A stretch of DNA of 64,000 bases from Promethearchaeia archaeon. Its GTDB lineage: Archaea; Asgardarchaeota; Lokiarchaeia; Sigyniarchaeales; SOKP01. This document shows, one piece after another, positions 10,483 through 44,590 of the stretch. Positions within the stretch are counted from its first letter, which is position 1; each line of letters starts with the position of its first letter. The notes beneath the pieces were generated by a model. The model saw only the letters and a program-made list of their open reading frames with translations. It did not search any database and had not been told where the DNA came from. The DNA lies in contig JAHQWL010000040.1 in assembly GCA_029856155.1 (NCBI GenBank), positions 125,032 to 189,031 of the forward strand, read 5' to 3'. The position numbers and the translations under genes are program-made.

Positions 10483-10668
10483 ATGAGCTCAGAAATTAGT
10501 GAAGAAGTTAAGAAAGAAATTTTTGACTTAATTTCGACTCCTGGAATTGAGATTGAAGATATTAGCGAAAAGGTAAACTTAGATTGTGATACAATTATGA
10601 ATATTTTATCTGAAGAATACTTAAAACATGATTTGAATCATGGTCGTAGGCTATGTTGTAGATTTTAA
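10483..10668 (+). CDS. Small hypothetical protein, HTH-like, ending in CCRF
   Basis: 61-aa ATG ORF filling an intergenic gap. Confidence 0.55.
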   Translation: MSSEISEEVKKEIFDLISTPGIEIEDISEKVNLDCDTIMNILSEEYLKHDLNHGRRLCCRF

Positions 10669-10746
10669 TTTAATTCTGGAAAAATTTTTTAATGTTGTTT
10701 TATTCTAAAACTTACTAAGTTTAAAAAAATATTATTCTAAGAAACT

Positions 10747-10820
10747 TAGGACGCAAATTTGTGCGGTTTCAATATAATAAAAATATTGAAATGGAAATAA
10801 ATTGTAATTTCGCGTTCCTA
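10747..10820. repeat. Imperfect long inverted repeat/hairpin upstream of rpl11
   Basis: TAGGACGCAAATT...AATTTCGCGTTCCTA outer stem and inner TTTCAATAT/ATATTGAAA stem. Confidence 0.5.
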
Positions 10821-10872
10821 CCTTTTAGAATATTTTTTAAACCCAGATTTATTAAAAAAACGGTGAGAGTAT

Positions 10873-11440
10873 ATGAGTGAAAAAGGAAAAATTGTTGTAA
10901 AGGCTCTTGTGACTGGTGGGAGTGCTTATATTTAATAATCATTTCGATTAAACCCCAAATGCATCAGGAGGGCCGCCTATTGCATAAAGCGTATCGCTTT
11001 TGTCAAATTAAGGTAAAGGTCCCTCCGTAGGCCCCACGGGCATAAATATAAAAGACGTGGTCGACGAAATCAACAAGCAGACACAGGTATTTAGGGGGTT
11101 AACGGTACCCGTTAGAATTGAATGCGATCCAGAGACAAAGCAATTTGAAATCTTCATTGAAACGCCTTCTACAGCATCATTATTACTGAAAGAAGTTGGT
11201 GTTGAAAAAGGGAGTTCTAGTTGTTCAGAAACAAAAATAGGAAATTTGACACTTGATCAAGTTCAAAACGTAGTGAAGGCTAAAACAGATAAATTTTTGG
11301 ATAAAACAATTAAAGCAGGTATAAAAACAGTGTTAGGTACAGCATTATCAGTGGGGTTAACGGTAGAAGGGCAAGATCCAAGAGCAATCCAAAAAAAAAT
11401 AGATAATGGGGAATTTGATGATATCATAAGAGGTGATTAA
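10873..11440 (+). CDS. rpl11: Ribosomal protein uL11 split by two introns, join(10873..10922,10960..10980,11017..11440), 164 aa
   Basis: Spliced N-terminus [46 protein letters not shown] matches the uL11 signature; GGTGA before ATG 10873; first gene of L11-L1-L10-L12. Confidence 0.92.
10923..10959 (+). other. rpl11 intron 1 (37 nt, relaxed BHB)
   Basis: Central helix TGGG(10917-20)/CCCA(10954-57), bulges AG^T and AA^T, inner hairpin TAATC/GATTA; contains stop and frameshift; junction could slide 1-3 nt on a TGC repeat. Confidence 0.8.
10981..11016 (+). other. rpl11 intron 2 (36 nt, BHB)
   Basis: Outer helix GGAGGGCC/GG(T)CCCTCC, central helix GCCT(10975-78)/AGGT(11011-14), bulges AT^T and AA^A, inner hairpin AAAGCG/CGCTTT; contains in-frame TAA. 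Confidence 0.87.
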
Positions 11441-11446
11441 GAAAAT

Positions 11447-12175
11447 TTGAAAGTCGATGATAAATTATTAAAGAAATCGTTAAACGCTGCTATTAATTTT
11501 TCTATAATGAAGAAAGAAGGATTTAAAGAAAAAGTTAGGAAATTCGACGAGTCTATTGATCTCATAATTAATATTAAAGATATTAACTTAAACGATCCAA
11601 AAAACAGAATTGATAAAGAAATTATCTTATCAAATGAAGTAGTTTCAAATGATAAGCCTAGTATTTGTGTAATTGCGTCAGATGAGATTTTACTAGAGGC
11701 GAAAAAACTTGGGATAGACACTCTAGATTCCAGCGGTTTGATTAATTTGAATAATGAAGAGAAAAAATATAAGAAAAAATTTGCCAAAAAATATGAATAT
11801 TTTGTTGTAGAAGATAAAATGATGAGAGATGTTGCTCGATACTTAGCAAGATTTCTTGGTCCAGTTGGTAAAATGCCAAAACCTTTCCCTACAGGATATG
11901 GGATCATTTCCAGCCCAGAAGATTTAAACGTCGCTTATGAGCGATATAAAAAAATAATTAGGATTCAAATGAAAAAGCAACCAATTATTTTCGCTAAAAT
12001 CGGTAAAAAATCTCTGGACAGGGAGAAGTTATATGAAAATATTAAGGTTGTAGTGAATTTTATTGCTGATCAAATGCCACATAAATTTAACAACTTTAAA
12101 TCTATGTATCTTAAATCTACAATGGGAAAACCCGTGAAAGTGACAGAAGAGTTCCTAAAAAGTATTGAGGTGTGA
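11447..12175 (+). CDS. rpl1: Ribosomal protein uL1
   Basis: RKFDESIDLIIN, LGPVGKMP, YLKSTMGKP; operon position. Confidence 0.93.
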   Translation: MKVDDKLLKKSLNAAINFSIMKKEGFKEKVRKFDESIDLIINIKDINLNDPKNRIDKEIILSNEVVSNDKPSICVIASDEILLEAKKLGIDTLDSSGLINLNNEEKKYKKKFAKKYEYFVVEDKMMRDVARYLARFLGPVGKMPKPFPTGYGIISSPEDLNVAYERYKKIIRIQMKKQPIIFAKIGKKSLDREKLYENIKVVVNFIADQMPHKFNNFKSMYLKSTMGKPVKVTEEFLKSIEV

Positions 12176-12179
12176 AATA

Positions 12180-13073
12180 ATGATTAAAAAAAAACATATA
12201 CCACAATGGAAGATAGATGAAATTAATCATTTAATTGATTTATTTAAAAATTATAAGAACATCGCTGTAATCGATGTTGCTCATATAAACGATATGCAAT
12301 TTCAAACAATGAGGAAAATTTTGAGAGAAAAAGCAATATTTAGGATGTCTAAAAAATCACTTCAATTACGAGCAATAGAAGGGTTTAAAAGTGAAGCTAA
12401 AAAGAAAAACTTAGATGAATTTGCAAATCATATTCCTGGACAATCTAGTCTTGTATTTACAAATATTGATCTTTTTGAATTAAAAAAGATATTTCTTGAA
12501 AATGAGTGGATGGTACCAGCAAAACCCAATGAAGTTACTCCCGTAGATATATGGGTTCCAGCGGGTGATACTGGTTTGCCCACAGGACAAGTAATTAGTG
12601 AATTGAATATGACATTGCGATTACCAACGAGAATTATGAATGATACGATACACGTTCGTGAAGATACAAGAACCCATAAAGCTGGTGATGTAGTTAATGT
12701 TAAGCAAGCAGCAGTTTTAAAAAAGTTGGGAATTACACCAATAGAATCATTGATAAGAATTCACTTTGCGTGGAGCGACGGTGAAATAATCCCTGAAGAA
12801 ATCTTATATATGGATATGGTAAAATTCAGACATGATGTTGCGAGAGCTTATAGAGAGGCACTAGGAATTCTTTTTGACATGCCATTCTATTCAGAGGAAA
12901 TGACGGATGAATATATTCGGAAAGCTGTATCTGAATGTAATACAATAGAAGCAATGATCTTTGGAGAGGGGATCAAGTTATCAGCTGAACCAGAATCTAA
13001 AGTTGAAGAAAAAGAGGCTGAAGAGGAACCCGAGGAGGAAGAAGAAGTTGGTATTGGAGGTCTTTTTGGATAA
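12180..13073 (+). CDS. rpl10: Ribosomal protein uL10 (P0)
   Basis: IPQWK, VPAGDTG, acidic tail ending GIGGLFG; ATG 12180 after SD. Confidence 0.93.
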   Translation: MIKKKHIPQWKIDEINHLIDLFKNYKNIAVIDVAHINDMQFQTMRKILREKAIFRMSKKSLQLRAIEGFKSEAKKKNLDEFANHIPGQSSLVFTNIDLFELKKIFLENEWMVPAKPNEVTPVDIWVPAGDTGLPTGQVISELNMTLRLPTRIMNDTIHVREDTRTHKAGDVVNVKQAAVLKKLGITPIESLIRIHFAWSDGEIIPEEILYMDMVKFRHDVARAYREALGILFDMPFYSEEMTDEYIRKAVSECNTIEAMIFGEGIKLSAEPESKVEEKEAEEEPEEEEEVGIGGLFG

Positions 13074-13148
13074 AAAATTAAGATTTTTTGAAATTTTACT
13101 TAAAATTACTAATATTAAGATAAAAAAATAAAAAAGAGGTTAAATTTT

Positions 13149-13439
13149 ATGGAAAGTATTTACGCTGCCTTATTATTACATAAAGCTGGAGGAAAAATTA
13201 ACGAAGCGAATGTACAAAAGGTATTAACTGCCGCAGGTGCGAAAGTTGATAAAGATCAAATCGTTAAATTAATTGCTGGATTAAAGGAAGCAGATATTGA
13301 TGAAATTATAAAATCTGCTGGGTCTATGCCGGTAATTGCAGCTCCTGCTGGAGGAAAAACTGAAAAAAAGCAGGAAAAAAAGCAGGAAAAAGAAGAAGAA
13401 GTCGAAGAAGAGCCTACGGGGATTGGATCCCTTTTTTAA
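13149..13439 (+). CDS. rpl12: Ribosomal stalk protein P1 (archaeal L12)
   Basis: MESIYAALLLH...acidic tail GIGSLF. Confidence 0.93.
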   Translation: MESIYAALLLHKAGGKINEANVQKVLTAAGAKVDKDQIVKLIAGLKEADIDEIIKSAGSMPVIAAPAGGKTEKKQEKKQEKEEEVEEEPTGIGSLF

Positions 13440-20475: not shown

Positions 20476-21552
20476 TTAATTTTTATCTAATTCTTGAAGT
20501 TCTATTATAAAATTATTATTATCATGTAAAATTCTATAATTCCTTTTTAAAAACAATTTCATTAGTTCTAAGTTAGTTTTAGTGTGGCTAGTAATCTCAA
20601 GTACTTTTATTCTCGATGATTCCTTAATGAAACCCATAAAAGGTATTAATTGATCGCTTAGATAATTATCCACAGGAATCTCTCTTTTAACATATTTAAT
20701 AAATTCATTAACAGTCCGTTTAGCAAGATTTTCAGAAGTAATATTACGTTCACCAAGTATAGTTCCGGAAGAAATAAAAGCTCCTGTATCAGAACTTGCC
20801 CATAAATATAGCCCCACTCCAGGGCTCAATGAATTTACATATTTGGAACTAATTTCAATATCCATTTTGAGTTCTTTCTTTAATTGTTGTTGAGCGGTTT
20901 TTTTTATTCTTTCACTGACTTCATTTCTTTTTAATTGATTGGCAGTAACTATTTCGCCTTGAATTAATTCAATATTCCCTAATTCAGTTAAAGATATTGG
21001 TCTCAATTTACTTTTAGAAGGATATAGAGTACATTTTACTAAAGCGCCTCCTTTAGGGTAAAAACCATGCTTTTGAATATCAACATCAATTTTAAAGCCA
21101 TGATTTCTAAAAATCTTATAAGTCACTTCATTAAGGTAATTAAGACCAGGAGCCCATTTACCAAATGTACCTCCACCGTTCACAATAATTTCAATTTTTT
21201 CTGGTGTATTGAATCCCAGACAAGCAATTTGAATCGGTTGGAGTAATAATCCTATACTTCCAGCTGTTCCAATTTCAACCCGTACATTATCTTTTATAGA
21301 TTGCCTGGGATTTAAAGTGATTTCTTTAGTTCCAACCGTGCAATTAGATAAATTACTATTTGTTAATTCGGATAAGGTTTTTAATCCAATCAAATGCTGC
21401 AATCTTAGACCTGGTTTAGGTCTATTAGCTCTTATATTTTTTATTCGAATTGGGCGTTTGAATAATATTGAAAATCCCGCTCCTATTCGAAGTATCGCAC
21501 CTCCACCTTCTCCGAAAGAACCATCAATTTCTAAGAATTTAGTTGTTGTCAT
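20476..21552 (-). CDS. rtcA: RNA 3'-terminal phosphate cyclase
   Basis: IDGSFGEGGGAILR, NIRANRPKPGL, GFYPKGG, DQLIPF, TSHTKTN (catalytic His). Confidence 0.92.
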   Translation of the reverse strand: MTTTKFLEIDGSFGEGGGAILRIGAGFSILFKRPIRIKNIRANRPKPGLRLQHLIGLKTLSELTNSNLSNCTVGTKEITLNPRQSIKDNVRVEIGTAGSIGLLLQPIQIACLGFNTPEKIEIIVNGGGTFGKWAPGLNYLNEVTYKIFRNHGFKIDVDIQKHGFYPKGGALVKCTLYPSKSKLRPISLTELGNIELIQGEIVTANQLKRNEVSERIKKTAQQQLKKELKMDIEISSKYVNSLSPGVGLYLWASSDTGAFISSGTILGERNITSENLAKRTVNEFIKYVKREIPVDNYLSDQLIPFMGFIKESSRIKVLEITSHTKTNLELMKLFLKRNYRILHDNNNFIIELQELDKN

Positions 21553-22682
21553 GGAGTATCATTTTTTCCATATAATGATTTAATTCGATTGATACCATTA
21601 AATTTTTCAATTAGCTGAACTACTTCTTTTGGTACTAGTGTTTTCCACTTTTTATCATTCTTGTTGATTAAATTTCTAATATTATTAGCATTGAAATGCT
21701 TTTTAAATATAATGATTTTTTTTTCAACTTTAATTCCCTTATCAAAAAACAATTCTCTTACCCAATCACTATTAGTATAAATTGAATCAAAGTCCCCTAC
21801 AATAGAGATAACATGATCAACCCATTTTTTAGCATTAAAAATATCCTGAATATAATATATTGTATACCGTTGAGAGGAGATACCTCTTTTTTGTAAGGCA
21901 GTCTTGATAAACATTTTTCTTTCATCACTTGAAAATGGATCATTTATAGTATGGGATAATTGAGAGCTACCTATGCCAATTTTAATTTTTTTTTTAGATT
22001 TTAAAATTTGGTTTATAACATAAATATGCCCATGATGTAAAGGTTGAAATCTTCCAATAAAAAGAGCACTTCCATTTTTTTTTTCAATAGATTGTTCTAT
22101 TTTTTTCTCGAAGAGAGATGAAATATTTGCTATTAAGAGTTTTTTCCAAATTTTTTTTGAATAATCTATATATTTTTCATTTTCTAACAGTTTTTCAAGT
22201 TCAGTTTTAGTATAGAATCTACTAAATCTAACATCTAACTCGTTCTGATCCGGGCGTAAAGTAACATTCCAATCAACAATCCCTAAAAAAATGTATGCTA
22301 TTTCATCACTTTCAGTATTTAAATCATAAAATATTACCTTCTGTACTTCTCTTGGAGGAATTCCAAATTCTTCTTCAAGTTCTCTTAACGCATTTTTCTT
22401 AATTTTATTTAGATCTAAATTTATCACCCAATTTATATGTCCAGAAGATGAATCAGTAAAATAGTTTGGGAATGCTCTTTTATTTTTTCCGCGTTTTTGT
22501 ACTAAATATGATATCGTACCATTTGGTGCTATTGATAAAATAAAAAATCTTGTTATTAAATGACTAATATTTTTCTTATGAGCCTCCGTTCTTTCCATTG
22601 GAAAAACATATTTAGAAATCTGACCCGATTGTAAAAATTTTTTATTTTTTTTTTCAATACAAGCCAATATTTCTTTATCCAT
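21549..22682 (-). CDS. Nudix (IDI-like) domain fused to NMN adenylyltransferase
   Basis: SSSGH...ALRELEEEFGI Nudix box; FIGRFQPLHHGH, GIGSSQ, PF...ER NadM motifs. Confidence 0.85.
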   Translation of the reverse strand: MDKEILACIEKKNKKFLQSGQISKYVFPMERTEAHKKNISHLITRFFILSIAPNGTISYLVQKRGKNKRAFPNYFTDSSSGHINWVINLDLNKIKKNALRELEEEFGIPPREVQKVIFYDLNTESDEIAYIFLGIVDWNVTLRPDQNELDVRFSRFYTKTELEKLLENEKYIDYSKKIWKKLLIANISSLFEKKIEQSIEKKNGSALFIGRFQPLHHGHIYVINQILKSKKKIKIGIGSSQLSHTINDPFSSDERKMFIKTALQKRGISSQRYTIYYIQDIFNAKKWVDHVISIVGDFDSIYTNSDWVRELFFDKGIKVEKKIIIFKKHFNANNIRNLINKNDKKWKTLVPKEVVQLIEKFNGINRIKSLYGKNDTP

Positions 22683-26778: not shown

Positions 26779-28149
26779 TTATTTAATTTGGTTATATGCT
26801 TTTTCAAATCTCTCGACAGCAGAAATGATATCTTTTTCTGATGCTCCAATTGCAGCATTCATTACAATATATGGGGTTGTATAATTGCTACAACATGTTC
26901 CAAATGAGTTTTCTTTTGGGTTATATACTCTTGGTCCTGTTACTCTCAAGTTATACAAAGCTCCACCAAGGGCATACAATTTTTTTTCACTTAGATTTTG
27001 TAATGATAATGCTACAGCAACGGGATTATATACATCAAGAATTCTTTCATTAAGTTTTTTAGCAATTTCCCTTAATTTCTTTTCGAGAATTTCACGATTA
27101 TGCTGTTGTTCTTTGAGTAGTTTTTGATAACCACTTATTCCTAATGATAACATTGAAATTAAAAAATTCACAACAGGTGTAGCTGAGGCACGACCTGCGT
27201 ATGCTTGGCTAATTTTGGTTATAGTCTCTTTTACCGGTGATGCTATTACAGCTCCACCAACAGGAGTAAGGAAATTTTTATCTGTTGATTGAATTATTGC
27301 ATCTACTCTACCTGCATCAAGTGCAGATCGAATTAATTTCATCCATTCTGGGCTTTGCACACCATATGCGTTTATAACGATATGGACAAGATTATTCTCT
27401 TCTGCAAATTTACTAATTTCTTTAATATTATCGTGTTCACGAGGAGGAAAAAAACTTGTAAGTGAGATAATAGCAAAACAGGTATTATCAAAATGATTTT
27501 TTATATCCTCAATCGGAATTCTAACCGCATCACCAAAAATCTGTCCGGGGATAATTTTTGCTTTAAAACCCATTAATTCAATCGCCTTTAAAAGAGATTT
27601 ATGATCTACTTGAGGAAGTAAGACTGTTCTTTTATAATTCAATTTTTTTTCGCTTATATTAGGTTTTAAAGCACTTAATGCTAATGATAAAGACATTCCT
27701 GTACATAACGGGACAACAATTGCTTCCTTAATGTTTGATAATCCAAAATTTCTTAAAATGTCTCGAGCTAAGTAGTTGGAAAGTTTATACATTATCGATC
27801 CACCGGGAGCCTTAGGCTGAGGTGCTGTTAAAAATCCACTTCTTCCCACACCATGACAGAATCCTGCTGATGTTCTTAAATGTAATTTTGAAGCGATTCT
27901 TCCTTCTCTTTCACCTACTCTAGCAGCATTAGTATCTTTATCTGTATCCATATTTGAAAGCGTTTGAAGCAAGAATTCGATTTGTTCATCAATCCAAGGT
28001 TTATTAGGTACAGATCTTTGTTCAAATAATATTTTTAGTGGATTTAAGAACTCATTTAGTACTAATTGTCCTCTATTAAGCATATTTTTTGGAATATTTA
28101 CACTTTCAAAAAAATCAATAATTTTATTAAAGTCAACCATTGAAAACAC
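26779..28149 (-). CDS. spcS: O-phosphoseryl-tRNA(Sec) selenium transferase (SepSecS)
   Basis: VGEREGR, HGVGRSG, QPKAPG, QSTDKNF, YAGRAS; directly downstream of tRNA-Sec. Confidence 0.93.
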   Translation of the reverse strand: MFSMVDFNKIIDFFESVNIPKNMLNRGQLVLNEFLNPLKILFEQRSVPNKPWIDEQIEFLLQTLSNMDTDKDTNAARVGEREGRIASKLHLRTSAGFCHGVGRSGFLTAPQPKAPGGSIMYKLSNYLARDILRNFGLSNIKEAIVVPLCTGMSLSLALSALKPNISEKKLNYKRTVLLPQVDHKSLLKAIELMGFKAKIIPGQIFGDAVRIPIEDIKNHFDNTCFAIISLTSFFPPREHDNIKEISKFAEENNLVHIVINAYGVQSPEWMKLIRSALDAGRVDAIIQSTDKNFLTPVGGAVIASPVKETITKISQAYAGRASATPVVNFLISMLSLGISGYQKLLKEQQHNREILEKKLREIAKKLNERILDVYNPVAVALSLQNLSEKKLYALGGALYNLRVTGPRVYNPKENSFGTCCSNYTTPYIVMNAAIGASEKDIISAVERFEKAYNQIK

Positions 28150-28173: not shown

Positions 28174-28266
28174 TGGCGGCCCTCGAGGGGAATCGAACCC
28201 CTATCCCTCCGCAGGATAACTGGGTTTGAAGCCCAGTGTCAGAGACCACTCCAACCGTCAAGGGCC
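28174..28266 (-). tRNA. selC: tRNA-Sec (UCA), 9/4 fold, encoded CCA
   Basis: 9-bp acceptor GGCCCTTGA/TCGAGGGCC, 7-bp D stem with 4-nt loop, CT-TCA-AA loop, long variable arm, 4-bp T stem, GCCA end. Confidence 0.93.
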
Positions 28267-43495: not shown

Positions 43496-43921
43496 TTATA
43501 TTATTAATGAAGATATTGAAGCTAATCTAGGAAACATTTCTGCAGCTTCTCTGGCTATTGGTCCTCGAATTTCTGTAGCCTTTGGATCACCTTCTTTTGT
43601 TACAATGACTCCCGCATTATCTTCAAAACAAAGCCTTGTACCATCTAACCTTCTGTAAATCATTTTTTGTCTAACTATTACTGCTTTTACTATATTTCCT
43701 CGTAATTCGGGTTTCCCTTTTTTTATTGTAACAGTACATACACTTCCAACAGATGCTTTAGGTAATCTTCTTAATCTTGTCTTGAAACCATCTACATTAA
43801 TAATTTGAGCTATTTTTGCTCCAGAATTATCAGCAATAATGATTTTTGATCCATTACATAAACCGTAACTGGTGCGAGGTTTAGTATATGTTTTTCTTCC
43901 TAATTTTCTTCTAGTTCCCAT
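43496..43921 (-). CDS. rpl14: Ribosomal protein uL14
   Basis: ADNSGAK, KKGKPELR, FEDNA, GPIARE; ATG 43921 preferred. Confidence 0.95.
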   Translation of the reverse strand: MGTRRKLGRKTYTKPRTSYGLCNGSKIIIADNSGAKIAQIINVDGFKTRLRRLPKASVGSVCTVTIKKGKPELRGNIVKAVIVRQKMIYRRLDGTRLCFEDNAGVIVTKEGDPKATEIRGPIAREAAEMFPRLASISSLII

Positions 43922-43922
43922 T

Positions 43923-44276
43923 TTATTCCGCACCACGAGAAATTTTTTCTATTACAATAAAAGCTTTTGTTTTAGAAATCTTTCGAGATTCACCAACTCT
44001 TACTAAATCTCCTATATCAATTTCATGATTTAAACAATTTGGTAAATGACACGCTAGACGAGTATTACGGCGCTCATACCTTTGATATTTTTTTACAAAT
44101 TGAACATAATCACGTCTTATAATAACTGTATTTCTTGATTTTTTACTAACTACAATTCCTTTAGTAATTTTTCCCCTAATTCGTGTATTTCCATGATAGG
44201 GACAACATTGATCGTCACATTCCTCTGCTTTTACTTTAGGAGGACTCACTCCTGGAATACCAATATTTCTACTCAT
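43923..44276 (-). CDS. rps17: Ribosomal protein uS17
   Basis: RNIGI, CPYHG, KYQRYERR, ISKTK. Confidence 0.95.
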   Translation of the reverse strand: MSRNIGIPGVSPPKVKAEECDDQCCPYHGNTRIRGKITKGIVVSKKSRNTVIIRRDYVQFVKKYQRYERRNTRLACHLPNCLNHEIDIGDLVRVGESRKISKTKAFIVIEKISRGAE

Positions 44277-44590
44277 TTTATTAACCTTCTCTTCTTCTTT
44301 AAACTTCTTAGTCTATTTACAGGAAGGCCAGTAAGCTTATTTCCTGCAACTTCCACATAATAATATATCTCATCATTCTCGTAGTTTGGAATTTTAAACC
44401 TAAATATATAATCTTTTTTAATATATTTCTTTATTTTATCATTTTTTTCTGTAATTAACATATCTCTTGTTTCATCAATCACAACGCCTATAGGCGAAAA
44501 TTTAATACCATTTAACTTTGATTTTGTTTTAATAAAGGCATAAATGCCTATCAAATCATGGTATATTATAAAATTTGGATTTAACATCAT
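44273..44590 (-). CDS. rnp1: RNase P protein subunit Rpp29
   Basis: HDLIG, GVVIDET, G..L...P..R; position between L29 and S17. Confidence 0.85.
   Translation of the reverse strand: MMLNPNFIIYHDLIGIYAFIKTKSKLNGIKFSPIGVVIDETRDMLITEKNDKIKKYIKKDYIFRFKIPNYENDEIYYYVEVAGNKLTGLPVNRLRSLKKKRRLIK

Follow-up and report, generated by a model that had tools for sequence, protein, structure and literature searches.

The gene for ribosomal protein uL11, rpl11, of an archaeon of the Lokiarchaeia is interrupted by two short inserts of 37 and 36 nt, and its message is very probably cut and rejoined at both of them, as BHB introns, by the EndA/RtcB tRNA-splicing machinery. The gene lies in a window, by which we mean the whole 64-kb stretch of DNA analysed, that forms part of contig C44 in an assembly of 4.1 Mb (104 contigs, 97% complete, 29% G+C). 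The nearest public relatives of the host genome are MAGs of Promethearchaeota (Lokiarchaeia), in agreement with the Asgard-like host that had been proposed from the letters of this DNA. All the parts of the locus are on the forward strand. A Shine-Dalgarno-like GGUGAG (10862-10867) can be read in the sequence 5 nt 5′ of the start codon. Exon 1 (10873-10922; 50 nt, that is, 16 codons and 2 nt) agrees with insert-free orthologues and is followed by intron 1 at a site that we call A (10923-10959; 37 nt), which has a relaxed BHB motif and an in-frame TAA at 10933-10935. Exon 2 is a micro-exon of only 21 nt (10960-10980), which codes for (S)ASGGPP(I) and again matches the insert-free orthologues. 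It is separated by intron 2 at site B (10981-11016; 36 nt), also with a relaxed BHB motif, from exon 3 (11017-11440), which encodes the remaining part of the L11 N-terminal domain (PF03946 positions 17-58), the RNA-binding domain (PF00298 positions 2-69) and the stop codon. Genes rpl1 (PF00687), rpl10 for P0 (PF00466 with PF17777) and rpl12 for P1 (PF00428) follow in the same cluster (11447-13439), and all of them are uninterrupted.

When the region is translated in all frames, the frame of unspliced rpl11 ends at the TAA of intron 1, 20 codons in, and stop codons are present in both of the inserts; the rest of the conserved uL11 N-terminus is found in two other frames, first ASGGPPI and then the part encoded by exon 3. 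Joining of the three exons gives 495 nt encoding a uL11 of 164 aa with a complete N-terminal domain: the Pfam match to PF03946 extends over positions 1-58 of 58 at 73.7 bits with exons 1 and 2 joined, and over positions 17-58 at 48.8 bits with exon 3 alone. The identity of the protein is given by matches to both PF03946 and PF00298 and by the position of the gene inside an rpl11-rpl1-rpl10-rpl12 cluster. The original prediction had described a uL11 N-terminus in three pieces, split by stop-containing inserts of 37 and 36 nt whose excision leaves a 495-nt, 164-aa open frame with the junctions GGGAG/TGCATC and GCCTAT/AGGTCC (slashes mark cuts or joints here and below). Coordinates and sequences of the pieces and inserts agree with ours, and the excision was reproduced together with the full-length PF03946 match.

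How are these inserts marked in the RNA? In the BHB register, the central helix joins two segments of 4 nt, one of which ends 2 nt short of the 5′ splice site and the other 2 nt short of the 3′ splice site. The central helix of intron 1 is made by UGGG (10917-10920) and CCCA (10954-10957), and that of intron 2 by GCCU (10975-10978) and AGGU (11011-11014) with one G-U pair, so that in both introns the predicted cut falls 2 nt past the central helix. Around these helices the two motifs differ. Intron 1 has the bulges AG/U and AA/U and an inner hairpin of AAUC with GAUU; its 5′ bulge AG/U is enclosed by helices and its 3′ cut falls within a larger internal loop, the intron helix being short and imperfect and no exon-exon helix adjoining the 3′ bulge. 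Intron 2 has an inner hairpin of AAAGCG with CGCUUU, and its 3′ bulge AA/A is enclosed by the central helix and by a 5-bp exon-exon helix between 10970-10974 and 11018-11022, which the MFE extends to 8 bp around one bulged U. No intron helix adjoins its 5′ bulge, where the cut falls in an internal loop. Both introns are thus relaxed BHB motifs, HBh′-like in intron 1 and hBH-like in intron 2. The strict hBHBh′ form, that is, two 3-nt bulges each enclosed by helices, is formed by neither of them; it is found in relatives, at site B in L060 and, at another site named D, in L083 and L095. The original prediction had assigned to each insert a 4-bp helix and two 3-nt bulges, of which the helices stand and the strict bulges do not, one bulge being enclosed in each intron.

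In contexts of 101 nt, the fold constrained to the BHB form lies above the local MFE by 1.6 kcal/mol for intron 1 and by 1.2 kcal/mol for intron 2. For intron 2, the MFE fold itself already contains the central helix, the 3′ bulge and the outer helix. When the whole 5′ region of 188 nt is folded, the motif of intron 1 is about 9 kcal/mol above the MFE. It is to be noted that the micro-exon segment GGAGGGCC has two alternative partners (window 10885-10975): GGCUCUU in exon 1, or GGUCCCUCC in exon 3, with which it makes the outer helix of intron 2. Formation of the two intron motifs may therefore be sequential, which hints at ordered or co-transcriptional processing. Group I and group II introns and curated RNA families were considered too, and Rfam covariance models gave no match at E <= 1 in window positions 10600-11500, where the inserts measure just 36-37 nt.

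Comparison with relatives gives an independent view of the gene. Loci of rpl11 were drawn from 40 relatives chosen by kinship and from 80 public contigs, resulting in 92 distinct sequences from many independent studies. Inserts of 28-38 nt occur in 41 close relatives at four fixed sites, located in the coding sequence after nt 50 (A), 71 (B), 83 (D) and 100 (C). They are seen alone (A, B, C or D) or combined as AB, AC, AD, BC and ABC, that is, up to three inserts in a gene; our gene is of the AB type and its nearest relative, 94% identical over L11, L1 and P0, is ABC. In another 40 close relatives rpl11 is uninterrupted, and its N-terminal sequence across the sites is that of our spliced prediction except for one Ser/Ala difference. 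In an alignment of representative genes the inserts appear as clean gaps against the insert-free gene. Thus, the alignment with related rpl11 genes that had been suggested as a check shows orthologues laid out exactly as the spliced product was predicted to be. The rpl11 frame is intact in genomes from the other families of this order that were compared, and 112 loci showed no split match for rpl1, rpl10 or rpl12.

The homologous inserts also tell which structure has been kept. Pairs were counted on MAFFT alignments, with the 3′ partner slid by 1-3 columns as the control. In the BHB register, 54 homologous inserts have on average 3.85 central-helix pairs, and 85% of them have 4 of 4; in 24 other registers the average is about 1.5, and 4 of 4 is reached by about 2%. 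At site A (intron 1; 12 homologues) 99% of the alignment cells are paired, and the first, outermost pair of the central helix varies among UA (7), UG (3) and AU (2), its exon side being the synonymous third base of a Gly codon. At site B (intron 2; 12 homologues) 90% are paired, as are 98% in the exon-exon helix, where one pair is AU, GU or GC and is made by two synonymous Gly positions. At site C 93% of the cells are paired and three pairs are altered on both sides. Sliding of the 3′ partners lowers the pairing to 20-59% in all three alignments (A, B and C). One common helix geometry is found although the inserts occupy four sites and all three codon phases.

These patterns bear most directly on the possibility that the inserts are removed or skipped by a process other than EndA/RtcB splicing, such as the hopping of ribosomes over a gap (translational bypassing, known from gene 60 of phage T4) or some unknown deletion at the RNA level. 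The involvement of the enzymes is deduced, and both inserts are short, contain a hairpin and bring an early stop, which gives them a superficial likeness to bypass elements. Translational bypassing requires matching take-off and landing codons, whereas many of the homologues permit one junction placement only and hence have no repeat at the boundaries. Moreover, what is conserved and covaries is a 4-bp helix spaced from either junction by exactly 2 nt, the ruler of EndA, and this single geometry is shared by inserts in every codon phase and at each of the four sites. We regard such a process as improbable.

Even less likely is decay of the 5′ part of rpl11, in which the inserts would never be removed and the cell would make just a truncated L11 or would carry a pseudogene. 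An open frame of 127 aa starting with GTG at 11057 does exist inside exon 3. Its product would miss positions 1-16 of the L11 N-terminal domain and more, and the genome offers nothing in exchange: in a profile search of the whole assembly both L11 domains were matched only at the window locus, so that the intact second rpl11 entertained as an alternative in the original prediction is not present in this 97%-complete genome. In addition, exons 1 and 2 are conserved as protein. Over the first 40 codons, differences from our gene in 41 insert-bearing genes are 754 synonymous to 172 nonsynonymous (4.4:1), as compared with 920 to 199 in the insert-free genes (n = 40), and the micro-exon peptide ASGGPPI is invariant among the close relatives compared. 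Purifying selection acts alike on the upstream exons of genes with and without inserts, and these exons are therefore translated in the insert-bearing lineages. As to an artefact of assembly or binning, the source is indeed a MAG in 104 contigs whose contamination is put at 5.7%, but homologous inserts evolving with compensatory changes stand at the same sites in 41 MAGs assembled independently in different projects, closed chromosomes included, and this explanation can practically be dismissed.

Splicing by the tRNA machinery needs an endonuclease and a ligase. A genome-wide profile search found two EndA paralogues (PF01974) at 103.5 and 72.6 bits. The EndA on contig C13 has its best match, 123 bits, in the catalytic chain of the Aeropyrum pernix heterotetramer (3p1z_B), with the GxxGxPL..KPR segment aligned; we take this segment to be the crenarchaeal-specific (L1) loop, which gives broad specificity. 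The EndA on C52 matches EndA chains more weakly, and its GxxHS motif, inspected by eye, is without the His. RtcB is encoded on C83 (569.7 bits). RtcA, the RNA 3′-terminal phosphate cyclase (PF01137 with PF05189), which is functionally linked to RtcB-type ligation, is encoded in the window itself on the reverse strand (20479-21549), 9 kb from rpl11. The genome encodes a predicted endonuclease capable of acting on relaxed motifs and a predicted RNA ligase. Asgard archaea are reported to have an (alpha-beta)2 EndA carrying the L1 insert, and relaxed motifs to be cut solely by the (alpha-beta)2 and epsilon2 types of EndA (PMC5829648). ARAGORN called 23 tRNA genes in the whole genome, 11 of them with introns, and the only one in the window is tRNA-SeC with anticodon TCA (28174-28266, reverse strand). 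Probably, most tRNA genes are hidden by non-canonical or multiple introns; the low count fits the heavily interrupted tRNA genes of Asgard archaea (bioRxiv 10.64898/2026.10.13.758758).

The EndA/BHB reading of the original prediction is thus supported, as a reading of sequence, by the single copy, the insert-free orthologues, the register, the covariation, the selection and the enzymes. According to the mechanism that we propose, the primary transcript of rpl11 would carry the 37-nt and 36-nt mini-introns, each of which would fold with the adjoining exon into a relaxed BHB motif. The splicing endonuclease, probably a heterotetramer of both EndA paralogues whose catalytic subunit has the crenarchaeal-type broad-specificity loop, would cut at 10922/10923, 10959/10960, 10980/10981 and 11016/11017, each 2 nt 3′ of a strand of the central helix. 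RtcB would then join the three exons, including the 21-nt micro-exon, into the 495-nt frame for a normal uL11 of 164 aa; left unspliced, the message would presumably be translated for 20 codons before termination. Cleavage and ligation, EndA and RtcB as their agents, and the order of intron removal are each what we infer.

Similar inserts are found in other genes of the same genome, all of them forming a hairpin in the BHB register. They are located in rpoN (30 nt; C14:57504-57533, reverse strand), tfs (30 nt; C25:12761-12790, forward strand), the gene for dodecin (31 nt; C71: about 27608-27638, forward strand) and elf1 (31 nt; C83:75370-75400, reverse strand). They have 3-4 central-helix pairs in the BHB register, and their excision restores conserved sequence. 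In both rpoN and tfs the profile match breaks off precisely at the insert, RNA_pol_N being matched up to position 50 of 58 and the TFIIS zinc ribbon up to 27 of 39. In 40 genomes of the genus, the rpoN match covers the full length in 29 cases and stops at position 49-50 of 58 in 8, that of our genome included.

Can such introns be counted over the genome? A genome-wide scan for frame-restoring BHB motifs, as had been suggested at the outset, was made in four versions, all combining BHB geometry with a restored frame and using strict helices, relaxed helices, a codon-usage score or strong inner hairpins, and no version gave an excess over controls with excisions of wrong length. For inserts with the strict motif that lie at least 30 codons from both ends of the open frame, the scan counted 193 against 194-208 in the wrong-length controls, which is a weak bound. 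The signal is swamped by a background that arises from gene ends and adjacent genes in a genome of 29% G+C, and the verified examples are within 10-30 codons of a gene end. The original proposal that mRNA splicing extends beyond rpl11 is supported in part, by the inserts in rpoN, tfs, dodecin and elf1. Three scan candidates in the window, at uL14 (about 43794-43831), Rnp/uS17 (44254-44285) and RtcA (21552-21580), turned out on reading to be intact or adjacent genes. Another interruption in the window is of a different nature. In the CheB gene (9308-10450, forward strand), which codes for a receiver domain and a PF01339 methylesterase domain, one in-frame TAA (9500-9502) falls midway in the receiver domain; past this TAA the reading frame is unchanged, and the length of the domain fits the stop counting as one residue. 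This TAA is not an intron, and it could reflect a pseudogene, a sequencing error or read-through.

Gain and loss of the rpl11 introns can be viewed on a tree. A maximum-likelihood tree was made from L11 (the exon 3 part), L1 and P0 of 79 loci, omitting the loci of other families (L027-L032), the truncated L080 and L106, duplicates, and loci without full L1 or P0. On this tree site A requires at least 12 changes of state, site B 10, site C 15 and site D 2, which are rough figures, many forks being weakly supported and the tree being built from the locus itself. Sister taxa differ in their introns: L004 has none and its sister L013 has C, and of the pair L086 and L108 the former has A and the latter C. 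The patchy distribution of the introns among close relatives is not in doubt. Because inserts at one site can be aligned across the tree, a history of old introns that were often lost precisely, or were exchanged by recombination, fits better than many independent gains.

It is to be noted that all four sites fall within about 55 nt in the Gly-Pro repeat of uL11, where GGN-CCN codons create GGNCC palindromes that serve as exon-exon helices (window 10905-11030; loci L005-L111). These palindromes may be a reason why introns are concentrated in this 55-nt hotspot and why rpl1, rpl10 and rpl12 have none. The inner hairpins at sites A, C and D have in common a loop-stem motif (A/U)UUUCGA, for example AAUCAUUUCGAUU and AAUUCAUUUCGAAUU (window 10940-10950). 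Scores of local alignments of introns between sites are just slightly above those of shuffled sequences, and a common origin of the sites is not established. It might be possible, with a chance that we would call even, that BHB mini-introns are a regular, fast-turnover feature of protein genes in Lokiarchaeia, which settle where codons happen to give the exon half of the motif, undergo frequent gain, spread and precise loss, and tie essential genes, possibly the whole L11-L1-P0-P1 cluster, to the tRNA-splicing machinery.

To which known introns are those of rpl11 related? The closest is the intron of cbf5 pre-mRNA in Crenarchaeota (Watanabe 2002; Yoshinari 2006; Yokobori 2009, PMC2738675), which is likewise short, bounded by a BHB motif and located in an archaeal coding sequence, and which likewise is linked to a hetero-oligomeric splicing endonuclease and is present or absent by lineage. 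It is the sole BHB intron in a coding sequence that was found in the searchable literature (PMC2738675; references in PMC5829648), and the full-text literature yielded no report of BHB introns in protein-coding genes of Asgard archaea. In contrast to cbf5, the case of rpl11 concerns a ribosomal protein gene in an Asgard (Lokiarchaeia) lineage, with two introns (up to three in relatives), a 21-nt micro-exon between them, four sites in about 55 nt, relaxed motifs and a very patchy turnover between close relatives. It is also to be kept in mind that splicing of cbf5 has been shown experimentally, whereas that of rpl11 is deduced from sequence. We place the putative rpl11 introns with the archaeal mRNA intron of the cbf5 type.

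Non-canonical and multiple introns of archaeal tRNAs (Marck and Grosjean 2003; bioRxiv 10.64898/2026.10.13.758758) resemble those of rpl11 in the 4-bp central helix, in the cuts 2 nt away from it on each strand, in the half-motif supplied by the exon, in the occurrence of strict and relaxed forms and of several introns per gene, and in the enzymes implied, which are the same. Unlike tRNA introns, those of rpl11 reside in an mRNA, and their excision must restore the reading frame. A more distant parallel is given by HAC1 and XBP1 of eukaryotes, whose mRNAs are spliced by Ire1 and tRNA ligase or RtcB: in these cases as well, mRNA splicing is independent of the spliceosome, an endonuclease cuts in stem-loops, a ligase of the tRNA type joins the exons, and the full protein depends on the reaction. 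Their splicing differs from that proposed for rpl11 in the endonuclease, Ire1, in the motif recognized and in being regulated by stress.

In this Asgard archaeon, an essential ribosomal protein encoded by one gene copy thus appears to need two BHB splicing events around a 21-nt micro-exon, and the same gene has from zero to three introns in relatives. If this is confirmed in RNA, standard gene callers probably get such genes wrong in Asgard MAGs, and phylogenies based on marker genes as well as estimates of genome completeness would be affected. Confirmation in RNA would also provide a tractable natural system for gain and loss of mRNA introns, and it would mean that the prokaryotes closest to eukaryotes possess split protein genes, with several introns and with micro-exons.
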